From an uncultured Chthonomonadaceae bacterium (GTDB lineage Bacteria; Armatimonadota; Chthonomonadetes; Chthonomonadales; Chthonomonadaceae): a stretch of DNA of 64,000 nt. A model generated the notes under the pieces. The model was not told the DNA's origin. It made no database searches and worked only from the letters and a program-made list of their open reading frames with translations. The position numbers were made by a program, and so were the translations under genes. The first letter of the stretch is position 1; each line of letters opens with the position of its first letter. The DNA lies in contig CAWIEK010000016.1 of NCBI GenBank assembly GCA_963835065.1, forward strand, positions 32,001 through 96,000, read 5' to 3'. Shown here piece after piece: positions 15,565 through 25,702 of this stretch.

Positions 15565-18500
15565 ATGCATCGCGGAACTGTATTGGGTTTTTATCAGGAT
15601 GCCGACACCGCCCGCGCCGTCTTGAAGCGGCTGCGCAGCCATCGGCTGTACCGCTCCGCGCTGCTGCGGCGACTGCCGGACGGCCAGACGCGCGTGGAAA
15701 CGGATTTGCCCGGCCTGCTGCCGCCGCTTGCCGGGGGCGCGGGGTTGGGACTGCTGATCGGCTTCGCGCTGCATTTGCTGTTTCCGATTTTGTTCGCGTA
15801 TCCGAGCGTGGGACAAGCGCTGTGCCTGCTCACAACTCTGCTTGGAAGCGTCCTCGCATGGCGCATGTACGCGATTACACCTGCCGATGTTGCCCTGTAC
15901 CGGGAGCGGCTTGTCCGGGATGAGGTTCTGGTGTTTGCGCGCGCGGGACGGCAAAAGGCCGCGCGCCTGCTCGACCTGATGCGGCAGGAAAGCGGCGACA
16001 ATCCTATCACTTTTGCCTTGTACGCCGGCGCGAAAGCGACGGAGGGCGAGGCTGCCGACGCGATTCACTATGAGCCGCTGCCGAGCGACCGTCTCGCGCA
16101 GGAAGCCCGAACGCTTGCCGCTGCGCACAAGGACGTGACTTGTTCTACAAATGGCAGGCCGCTCCAGCAGCGGCTTCGCGCCAGCGCCCGCGCCATTGCC
16201 CGCGTCCATGACCATCTCAGCGACATGTCCCGCATTGACCCCAACATCCTCCTCGCCGCGGAATGGCTGCTGGACAACAGTTTTGTCATACAAGGCCACA
16301 TTGACGACTTCCGCCGCAGCCTGCCACGCCGGTATGAGCAGGAGTTGCCCGTGTTGAGGGAACAGGGAACAGGGAACAGGGAACAGGAAAAAGGAGAAAG
16401 GAAAAAGGAGAAAGGAGAAAGCCAGTCACCGACCACCAACCACCAATCACCAACCCACCTCCTGCAATTCCTGACGCGGCAACTGAGCCGGTTTGGGAAC
16501 TGGCTGGCGACGGATGAGCGGTGGCGATTGCTGGCGGACAAGGTTCGGAACCGGGTGCAGAATGTCCGCCCGGATGCGCCGGAACTGCCCCTGCCCCGCG
16601 TGTACGCGCTTTCCCGCGATTTGATTGTTCATACGGATGCGCGCATTGACCGCGACAACATGCGGCAGTTTCTGGACGAGTACCAGAGCGTGACGCCGCT
16701 GACGATTGGCGAACTGTGGGCCGTGCCGCTGATGCTGCGGCTGCGGCTGATCGAACAACTGCGCGCCCTGTCGGTTCAGGTGGACCAACGGCAGCACGAG
16801 CGCGAACTGGCCGACTTTTGGGCCAACCGCCTGCTGACCGCCGCCCGCCGCGATCCCGACCAGCTGGATTTGTTTGTCGCCTATTTGCAGCGCGACATTG
16901 CCGCGCCCACGCCCCACTTTGCCGAACAGCTTGTGGAACACCTGTACGACGAGGAAGCCGCGCTTGCGCCCGTTCGCAACTGGCTGGAACGACGGCTGAA
17001 CATGCCCCTGCCCGACGCTTTTGCTCAGGAGCGCACCACGCAGGCGCGGCAGCAAGTCTCGCTCGGCAACGCCATTTCCAGCCTGCGCGAATTGGGGCGG
17101 CTCGATTATCCCAAGCTGTTTGAAGAGGTCAGCCGCATTGACGCCCTGCTGTACAGCGACCCTTCCGGCACGTATGCCCACATGAATTTCGCCACGCGGG
17201 ACCGCTACCGCCACGCTGTGGAAGAAATCGCCCGCCGCTCTGTGGATGCCGACGTAGACGAATTTGCTGTCGCCCACAAAGCCATTGAACTTGCCCATGC
17301 GCAGTCGGAGGGCGTTGCCTGCCACATCGGTTACTATTTAATAGACGCCGGACGCCCGCAACTGGAAGCCGAACTGCATAGTACGCCCCGCGCCCGCGTC
17401 CGCGTTCTGCGCTGGCTGGAAACGCGCGGCACGGCTGTCTATCTTGGTACGGCAATAGGCGCAACGACGGCCATTGTCACCACGCTTTGTATTCAATCCA
17501 CTTTTGCGGGCGCATCCCTTCCCTTGACAATCCTGCTTGGCCTGCTGGCGGTTTTCCCGGCCAGTGAAGTGGCGATACAGGTCATCAATTATCTGGTCAC
17601 GCGCCTGCTGCCGCCCCGAACCCTGCCCAAAATGGATTTTGAGCAGGGCGTCCCGCCCGATTTTCGTACCCTCGTTGTCGTGCCGATGATGCTGCTCACG
17701 CCCGAAAGCATTCAGGACGAGATTGACCGCCTTGAAATCCGCTATCTTGCCAACACGGACGACAACCTGCGCTACGCCCTGCTGTCCGATTACTCCGACG
17801 CGCCCGGTCCTTCTATGCCCGACGACGCCGAACGCCTTAACGTCGCTATGCGGGGCATCGAACAACTCAATTCCAAATATTCTGACGGCAAATTCCTGCT
17901 CTTTCACCGTGAGCGCGCGTGGAGCGAAACCGAAGGCCGCTGGATGGGCTGGGAACGCAAGCGCGGCAAATTGGAGCAGATGAACGCGCTGCTGATGGAG
18001 GGGAGGAAGGGAACAGGGGACAGGGAACAGGGGACAGGGAACAGGGGACAGGGAACAGGGGAAACTCAATCGGCAATTCCCTCCATGCAAATCCGCGCCG
18101 GCAATGAGGAGTGGCTGCTGGACATTCGGTTTGTCATTACCTTAGACGCCGACACTCAACTGCCCCGCGATACCGGACGCCATCTTGTGGAAACACTGGC
18201 GCATCCGCTCAACCTGCCAGTAGTTAGGGAACAGGGAACAGGGAACAGGGAACAGGAGACAGAAGGAAGTGATGAACGCGGAATGATGAATGATGAATTG
18301 AATTCTAACTCATCACTCATCACGCATCACTCATCACTTCCTTTCGTAGAACGCGGCTACACCATCCTGCAGCCTCGCGTCAGCACGAGTTTGCCGAGCG
18401 CGGCGGCGAGTTATTTTTCGCGCTTGTTTACGGATATGCGGGGAACCGACCCGTATACGCTGGCGGTTTCGGATGTGTATCAGGATTTGGCGGGGGAAGG

Positions 18501-24500: not shown

Positions 24501-25702
24501 TGGCGGAAACTATCGAAGCGCAGGCATGGGACGGCAATTGGTATCTGCGCGCGTTCTTCGACGACGGCACACCGATGGGTTCCGCGCAAAGCGACGAAGC
24601 CAAAATTGACAGCCTGCCCCAATCGTGGAGCGTCCTGAGCGGCATGGGCGATCCCGAACGCTCCCAACAAGCCCTGCAAGCCGTCGAGCAGTATCTGGTG
24701 AAGGACTTTGGGGAGAAGACAGAAGACAGAAGACAGAAGACAGAAGGAAATGCGCAAGAAGGAGAAGACCTATCAACTATCAACTATCAACTATCAACTA
24801 CTTCCGGGGGCATGGTCCTGCTGTTCACGCCGGCCTTTGACAAGACGCCGCATGATCCGGGGTATATCAAGGGGTATGTGCCGGGGGTGCGGGAAAACGG
24901 CGGGCAGTACACGCATGGCTCGCTGTGGGTTCCATTCGCGTTTGCCGAGCGGGGCGAAGGGGATAAGGCCTGCCATCTGCTGCGCCTGATGAACCCGGTA
25001 GAACATGCCCGCGTTCCCGAAGGCGTGGAGCGCTACAAGGTGGAGCCGTATGTCGTGGTGGCCGACATTTACAATCTGGCCGGGCAGCAGGGCCGGGGCG
25101 GGTGGTCGTGGTACACAGGTTCGGCGGGGTGGATGTACCGGGCGTGGCTGGAAGCCGCGTTAGGCTTTGAAAAGCGGGGCGCGTCGTTCACGCTTAATCC
25201 CTCCATACCCCGCGCCTGGGACGGCTTCACGCTGAAATACCGATTCGGCAGCGCCTTGTACGTGGTTCGCGTCGAAAACCCGGAGCATGTGGAGCATGGC
25301 GTCGCCCGCGTGGAATTGGACGGCAAGCGCCTGCCCGACAAAATCATTCCGCTAACCGCTTCCGAGCAGACCTACGAAGTGCGTATCCTGATGGGCGCGG
25401 AAGAACCAGTTGAAGCATCAATAGAACAACCAACGCAGGAAACGCCGGAAGAGAAAACCGAGGCGCATACGGACGAAAGCGCAATAGTAGCCACGTCCGG
25501 CGAAGCGGTCACGGCTCCTGCGACAGAAGCGCCGGAAGGCGGAACGGCGGAACCGAAAACAAAGCGCGCTTCCTCCCGGAAAACGGGCAAGGGAACCGGC
25601 AATGGAACCGAAGCGGGTACAGGGATGGAAGCCAGTACAGACGCGGACGGCATCGAACCTCCCGTCCCACCGGTTACGCCGCCTGCAAAGCCGGAAATGT
25701 AA
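15565..25702 (+). CDS. cyclic beta-1,2-glucan synthase/phosphorylase (Cgs/NdvB-like, GT84 + GH94), frameshifted near 20.0 kb
   Basis: AEWLLDN, GWERKRGKL, LLSHDLIEG, RQHRWVRGDWQ, SWSGTMFEYLMP, YQSGGAFGFRDQLQD, RENGGQYTH across two overlapping ORFs. Confidence 0.92.

Follow-up and report, generated by a model that had tools for sequence, protein, structure and literature searches.

Seven heptamer-array blocks in a split cyclic glucan synthase gene of a Chthonomonadaceae bacterium: fixed sites, interchangeable units and a frameshift

The 64,000-nt stretch analysed here, called the window, belongs to an uncultured Chthonomonadaceae bacterium (assembly GCA_963835065.1, contig CAWIEK010000016.1, positions 32,001 to 96,000) and contains a gene for a predicted cyclic glucan synthase (cgs; positions 15565-25702 of the window) that is interrupted by seven blocks of tandem heptamers and, as assembled, by one frameshift. 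This raises the question of how such blocks come to stand in the gene and whether the frameshift at one of them is a regulatory switch. The original prediction had placed and translated the seven blocks, and all of its coordinates and peptides are confirmed in the sequence. The feature is real, and its lasting interest is a fixed address with interchangeable units. The reading preferred here, to which we give a probability of about 0.7, is that an array persists in a tolerant loop while its unit is rewritten in place, that the cgs frameshift is an error, and that the loops are passengers.

Fixed sites with changing units are seen when in-gene arrays are compared with those of one congener (G001) across 1,081 orthologous genes, cgs excluded. 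Of the 24 in-gene array sites of G001, 20 coincide with array sites of the genome under study; 3.6 would be expected given the 695 indel-tolerant sites (P=5e-14). Neither genome has an array at 586 further indel-tolerant sites. In a list based on flanking sequences, 26 of 151 rows have an array in G001, which corresponds to 21 distinct sites, and by our own count the unit is common to both genomes at 2 of them. Within the genome itself, three paralogs carry three different unit sets at one site.

The blocks of cgs, all read on the forward strand, are mostly array pairs with a G-rich left arm and a C-rich right arm. Eight perfect heptamer arrays of at least 21 nt occur in the gene, and none in 500 codon shuffles. 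Block 1 (16357-16455; AGGGAAC x4.4 and AGGAGAA x5.3, then CACCAAC x4.1) opens a loop of 81 residues in the N-terminal domain. Block 2 (18008-18078), with 7.6 units of AGGGAAC/AGGGGAC and the remnant of a right arm, forms a loop immediately before the DxD strand of the glycosyltransferase, and is followed by block 3 (18226-18338; AGGGAAC x4.4, TGATGAA x4.1, ACTCATC x4.4). Block 4 (19982-20074) consists of AGGGAAC x4.3, a purine-rich spacer and CAATCGG x4.7, and contains a +1 frame change. Block 5 (22695-22784; ACAGGGA x4.7, TTCATCC x4.6) lies in the linker preceding the second GH94 supersandwich. Block 6 (24380-24470), with a decayed purine-rich left part and GCAATCG x4.9 at 24437-24470, stands between two helices of the GH94 catalytic barrel, and block 7 (24714-24800; AGAAGAC x4.7, CTATCAA x4.4) lengthens a hairpin turn of the GH94 catalytic domain. 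That six blocks keep the frame and that the sole frameshift falls at block 4, as originally described, is borne out by alignment to a 3,459-residue ortholog of G001.

At sites 1, 2, 3, 5, 6 and 7, the window gene has 81, 48, 47, 57, 61 and 63 residues between conserved anchors, compared with 10, 25-27, 13, 33-34, 35-43 and 31 in outgroups (7-8 of 8 homologs measurable per site); the inserts at sites 1 and 6 extend beyond the blocks themselves. The comparison of loops with those of homologs, suggested along with the original prediction, thus finds short loops in the outgroups and not loops of equal length. Seven fresh insertions are nevertheless not supported: four long orthologs (P0001-P0004) are already expanded at the same loops with different content, only slightly so at site 5 in G001 and P0004. 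In P0004, the peptide of AGGGAAC is found at sites 2 and 7 and that of AGAAGAC at sites 1 and 6; in the cgs of G001, site 4 is occupied by an 8-mer and sites 6 and 7 by AAAGGAA and CAAACAA arrays. Across the five orthologs, units are shuffled between sites. Among metagenome contigs of relatives, some span blocks 5 and 6 and others include portions of blocks 1, 2, 4 and 7. Pieces of X1 enter blocks 1 and 2 with 0-1 differences, X3 bridges block 6 without a gap, X2 bridges block 5 with 39 letters where the window has 69 (30 nt shorter), and X2 and X4 run into blocks 4 and 7. Because relatives' contigs carry parts of the arrays, these are not artefacts of this assembly. In two AlphaFold models, blocks 2, 3, 6 and 7 are discrete low-confidence stretches between secondary-structure elements, and blocks 1 and 5 lie in low-confidence termini.

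Changes at a single address can be followed in 67 duplicate pairs of blocks with flanks at least 90% identical. In 7 of these the block is rewritten or absent. Some pairs have both arms changed and still complementary, and in some the spacer is, judged by eye, still recognisably related though both arms have changed. In one pair the block is present in one copy and nearly absent from the other, as would be expected from the main rival to in-place rewriting, in which a mobile two-armed element would have inserted repeatedly and independently into the few loops that it can target, likewise giving shared positions. The strict polarity of the arms, which resembles transposon ends, and the repeat arrays flanking all 3 PF05635 four-helix-bundle genes agree with such an element. 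Insertion is nonetheless unlikely, given the 586 indel-tolerant sites left empty in both genomes, the spacers kept recognisable while both arms change, the lack of a common family sequence among the blocks and a PF05635 count that does not track array load. As drivers, the PF05635 genes were rejected for this last reason: 3 matches are found here, 6 in a genome without the AGGGAAC array (G033) and none in G001. Two reverse transcriptase (RVT_1) matches occur in the genome, neither closely bracketed by arrays, and no driver was found among the PF05635 and RVT_1 candidates checked.

About 170 kb of the assembly occur in two copies that are at least 98% identical (for example on the contig pairs C21/C30, C27/C29 and C43/C69), and these doubled contigs are probably strain haplotypes or redundant assembly. 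A high-copy dispersed repeat family (e.g. C45:38816, C32:2825) holds a CTATCAA array at one position; in other copies this array is absent, partial or swapped for 8-mer units, which makes the family a good data set for tracing unit turnover.

Arrays inside genes are strongly filtered. G001 proteins served as rulers, and a block was counted when both of its flanks match one ORF (open reading frame). An initial tally of 126 clean blocks in 178 rows was inflated by antisense shadow ORFs; removal of 27 rows left 151, and a stricter inside-gene filter, which removed another 35, left 116. Of these 116 blocks, 99 are cleanly in frame, 2 are in frame with a stop codon and 15 are shifted, so that 101 keep the frame (P=4e-33 against an expectation of one third). 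Units with a stop codon account for 11 of the 147 sense units inside genes, compared with 1,916 of 4,576 overall. The stop-free unit AGGGAAC dominates the left arms in genes, which translation with removal of stop-bearing versions would explain. The idea of an active repeat system with selection for frame in coding DNA, first raised for cgs, is accordingly upheld lineage-wide. Filtering of frame and stops is what would be expected of translated and retained loops, and the blocks are likely translated.

That the blocks are instead eliminated from the RNA as mini-introns, or bypassed by the ribosome, would render the frameshift harmless and explain how an essential gene such as ileS can contain shifted blocks. 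This is extremely improbable, since filtering of frame and stops would then be needless, and repeat-free frameshifts in essential genes point to a noisy assembly. In addition, only block 3 forms a hairpin better than those of shuffled sequences (z -3.6), and the other six cgs blocks show no such advantage (z -0.3 to +2.7); a hairpin or intron role was therefore rejected for six of the seven.

Under in-place rewriting, an array that has entered a tolerant loop would remain a hot spot. Short events of gene conversion or template switching would overwrite its arms with sequence from the roughly 3,000 other arrays of the genome, and slippage would then smooth the result. Versions with a shifted frame or a new stop would be discarded by selection, and the loops would be passengers rather than a regulatory switch. 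Selection on frame and stops would also explain why in-gene arms no longer pair; arms are complementary mainly outside genes. Gene conversion is a putative route. Several points weigh against this account. The comparison covers 2.4 of the 6.6 Mb of one congener, neither a donor-recipient tract nor an enzyme was identified for the rewriting, and we infer the translation of the loops from their sequence. About one third of each AlphaFold model is of low confidence and the alignments are shallow, so that the models are weakly informative.

A dedicated enzyme system could also recognise two-armed sites and rewrite their arms with about 4.5 copies from a small cross-lineage vocabulary, amounting to genome-wide cassette exchange at fixed in-gene addresses. 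We regard this as unlikely; if true, the loops of Cgs, the isoleucyl-tRNA synthetase IleRS and a GltB-like protein would be continually re-coded by such an enzyme. More generally, the lineage offers a measurable handle on how bacterial heptamer arrays arise and spread, through its fixed positions and interchangeable units, its capped lengths, the strict polarity and the pairs of near-identical copies before and after a change, and it shows non-coding repeats as a steady source of new protein loops.

The cgs blocks are ordinary members of a genome-wide array family. The 8.0-Mb genome contains 1,330 perfect heptamer arrays of at least 3 units, compared with 0-163 for periods of 4-6 and 8-12, and Tandem Repeats Finder reports 2,340 heptamer and 674 octamer arrays. 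Array length peaks at 30-33 nt (4-5 units), and of the 2,301 perfect arrays just 32 are longer than 34 nt. Where two arrays lie within 100 nt (n=1,044), the G-rich one precedes the C-rich one in 770 pairs and the order is reversed in 9. More than 20 unit types plus 8-mers are mixed within this one grammar. The two intergenic array pairs tested, perfect inverted heptamer pairs at 40460-40576 and 58289-58410 of the window, are strong hairpins (folding z about -10 and -11). In the 2.4 Mb of G001 covered, 86 heptamer arrays are found, far fewer and with other dominant units. Of 41 genomes searched, 6 have the AGGGAAC pattern.

Coding sequence is depleted in blocks, with 138 in 1.19 Mb of conserved genes compared with 2,271 in 8.0 Mb. 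Still, 117 of the 1,081 conserved genes carry a block, including in mid-domain loops. Genes longer than 3 kb have about 3.6 blocks per 10 kb, and seven blocks are a normal load for a gene of the length of cgs; the idea of cgs as a special hot spot was rejected (7 observed, about 3.6 expected, P=0.08). The density of in-gene blocks grows with gene length, from 0.57 per 10 kb in genes below 1 kb to 3.5 in those of 3-5 kb, and from 0.05 to 0.99 per 10 kb in G001. More linkers and edge trimming explain part of this trend.

Repeat-derived peptide inserts are known from Rickettsia, where Rickettsia palindromic elements (RPEs) are inserted in frame into surface loops of conserved proteins and form palindromic families with a consensus sequence. 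In contrast to these, the cgs blocks are tandem arrays, all but one lack self-complementarity, and the seven differ from one another in arms and spacers, so that neither the self-complementarity nor the family consensus of RPEs or of miniature inverted-repeat transposable elements is seen in the blocks as a group. The features of dispersed bacterial heptamer arrays, which resemble the short tandemly repeated repetitive sequences of cyanobacteria, namely a genome-wide excess of 7-nt periods, about four units, convergent pairs and depletion in coding sequence, are all present. Dispersed heptamer arrays of this kind have been described as GGGAATC in Xanthomonas and GGGGA(C/T)T in Nostoc, and the same study reports four-unit arrays, convergent pairs and 7-11% intragenic copies (Rehm 2015, PMC4692102). 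Geobacter metallireducens has GGACCGG x4 arrays (PMC2700814), and Beggiatoaceae have TAACTGA arrays, for which the account in PMC4679880 notes that stop codons within the unit limit coding placement. All of these share with the present arrays the 7-nt unit, about four units, occurrence on both strands, convergent pairs and a minority of copies in genes. The present family differs from them in its roughly 2,340 arrays compared with 49-186, about ten times more, in its more than 20 unit types and in the share of conserved genes with a block. Moreover, units differ here at shared sites, whereas the Xanthomonas comparison in PMC4692102 describes mostly the same repeat at the same place.

Replacement at a fixed address is described for the P6b stem-loop of the Nostoc tRNA-Leu intron, in which, according to Kaasalainen 2015 (PMC4476775), one heptamer class has repeatedly been replaced by another. 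Two facing heptamer arms, a fixed address and class replacement (Class I and II motifs) are common to both systems. P6b is one structural RNA locus with complementary arms; here, dozens of protein loops are concerned, the arms are mostly not complementary and the vocabulary is larger. Genome-wide replacement of units inside genes was not found described in the literature searched, mostly open papers without supplements, and a search for these repeat units or peptides gave unrelated papers only.

The host gene is a predicted Cgs in two parts. ORF1 (15565-20130, 1521 residues) encodes an N-terminal domain, the GT84 glycosyltransferase, membrane helices and the first part of the cyclase, and leaves the frame after block 4. 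ORF2 (19961-25702, frame +1) encodes the remaining cyclase, the GH94 supersandwich and catalytic domains and a low-complexity tail; its Pfam matches are Glycoamylase PF10091, PF06165 (twice) and PF17167. Both align in the same order to the one intact G001 ortholog, with a single frame change in the whole alignment, at block 4, and both genes share an upstream RNB gene. Both ORFs also match the Agrobacterium tumefaciens Cgs structures 8rf0/8rf9, ORF1 up to residue 1156 and ORF2 from residue 1253 of 8rf0, and the isolated cyclase structure 8wy1 is divided likewise (residues 13-164 in ORF1, 301-575 in ORF2). For the modelled C-terminal part, the top Foldseek match is 8rf0 (E=1e-53). A cgs query matched in 18 of 41 related genomes searched.

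All three catalytic parts can be recognised. The C-terminal GH94 phosphorylase domain retains the GDWNDG motif (24266-24283), which we take to be catalytic in GH94 and which may be equivalent to D2528. The GH144-like cyclase, although divided between the two ORFs, has the glutamate equivalent to A. tumefaciens E1300 (LLASE, counted in 8rf0 numbering) encoded at 20555-20557, downstream of the frameshift, and a probable D1104 equivalent located from the SFVDSGN motif in ORF1. In the GT84 domain (18139-18714), the motifs TLDAD (D624/D626), DPY (autoglycosylation Y694), SHD (D739) and QHRWVRGDWQ are intact. The glycosyltransferase residues D624/D626/D739 and Y694 and the cyclase E1300 are those named in PMC10901819, in whose numbering the cyclase comprises residues 979-1535 of A. 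tumefaciens Cgs; the study reports that Cgs function is abolished by cyclase substitutions and by C-terminal truncations. The window gene thus resembles A. tumefaciens Cgs in its domain order (N-terminal domain, GT84, transmembrane part, cyclase, GH94) and conserved active-site motifs. It differs in its size, about 3,380 compared with 2,818 residues, and in having seven expanded loops, an N-terminal extension, a low-complexity tail and, as assembled, one frameshift. G001 shares the C-terminal tail of about 100 residues (25400-25699), which outgroups lack or have in short form.

Block 4, according to the alignments to Cgs structures, is located within the cyclase, most likely in its helical insertion of about 120 residues. 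A genuine shift at this position would disable the entire enzyme and not only the GH94 half, which the original prediction had proposed to be under phase-variable control. The other branch of that prediction, an assembly or sequencing error, is most likely correct. In 1,186,102 nt of orthologous sequence, 158 frame changes occur in conserved genes; after filtering 150 remain, of which 135 are away from arrays, and 114 of these 135 are +1. The chance of at least one frame change in a 10.1-kb gene is 0.68, or 0.86 at the rate of this contig. The single ileS (TIGR00392) is broken twice, once at an AGGGAAC block. Further frameshifted genes presumably include rpoB (6), rpoC, gltB (5), rplB and rpsC, which were assigned from motifs. 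The neighbouring RNB (RNase II-like) gene has a +1 change at 15275-15285 with no repeat nearby, and the final 66 residues of its product are read in the next frame, up to 15472. One block has copies on two contigs; they differ by a single base of the spacer, and it is the longer of the two that is shifted. Because about 11% of conserved genes (120 of 1,081) carry apparent frameshifts, a shifted repeat in this assembly is not to be interpreted as phase variation. A separate case is an aminoacyl-tRNA-synthetase-like gene that is open on C69 and broken on C43.

A real, fixed frameshift, produced by a recent one-base or one-unit indel at the unstable block 4 and leaving this strain with an inactive cgs, is improbable. 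It would suit the character of blocks as indel hot spots, with 5.0 indels per kb in blocks compared with 1.06 outside them within duplicated stretches, and a gene that looks dispensable from its match in 18 of 41 genomes. It is hard to reconcile with intact catalytic motifs on both sides of block 4 and no other stop or shift in 10.1 kb, with the same +1 signature in essential genes of this assembly and with the four long orthologs, all of which are open across site 4. A 253-residue fragment (P0010) also reads through site 4 in one frame with a similar loop, and is given little weight as it is itself error-ridden.

Phase-variable simple sequence repeats form contingency loci, and envelope and osmotic glucans are a class often phase-varied. 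Slipped-strand gain or loss of a 7-nt unit at block 4 could accordingly toggle cyclic-glucan synthesis, and thereby the whole enzyme. As in such loci, a tandem unit not divisible by three stands at a frame change in an envelope-glycan gene; 7 equals 1 modulo 3 and agrees with +1, both block-4 arrays are perfect, and single-unit differences occur in 2 of the 67 duplicate pairs. Phase variation is nevertheless very improbable. Instead of a long, freely varying tract, the block-4 arrays are of modal length (30 and 33 nt; 4.3 and 4.7 units) in a sharply capped distribution, and whole-unit changes are rarer than differences of 1-2 nt (11 of 67). Moreover, block 4 stands mid-gene, its six sister blocks and 99 of 116 blocks genome-wide are cleanly in frame, and the orthologs have other, often imperfect, units at site 4.

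An error is not shown directly, as none of the relatives' contigs bridges block 4, and other observations also speak against it. The gain of one 7-nt unit would likewise give +1. Shifted blocks number 15 where 1.6 are expected from the background, an excess of about 10-fold, and are less biased to +1 (10 of 15); this excess could be real variation or error-prone sequence. The duplicated contigs may be strain haplotypes with about 1% substitutions, in which case 1-nt differences are not all proven errors. A genome search with the block-4 spacer found only itself, so that the extra base could not be placed, and scans for related loci recovered 3 and 7 distant loci and no close strain.

Elsewhere in the window, a 162-nt hairpin (-62 kcal/mol) at 25703-25864 lies directly 3' of the cgs stop codon, and related sequence occurs at about 42 places in the genome and on contigs of four metagenomes. 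Six further in-frame blocks are found in five other ORFs (6384-6455, 26140-26174, 34116-34183, 47367-47402, 61284-61393 and 61856-61922), among them those for PSD1/LamG, MobA-like and FG-GAP/UnbV proteins; the congener has a different unit at the MobA-like site and at one FG-GAP site. A minus-strand gene (35450-37361) has a frame change at 36127-36144, adjoining a repeat with a 12-nt period at 36086-36123. Finally, a 22-nt tandem repeat of about 4-6 copies is located at 53413-53541, in a stretch that occurs at two places in the genome.

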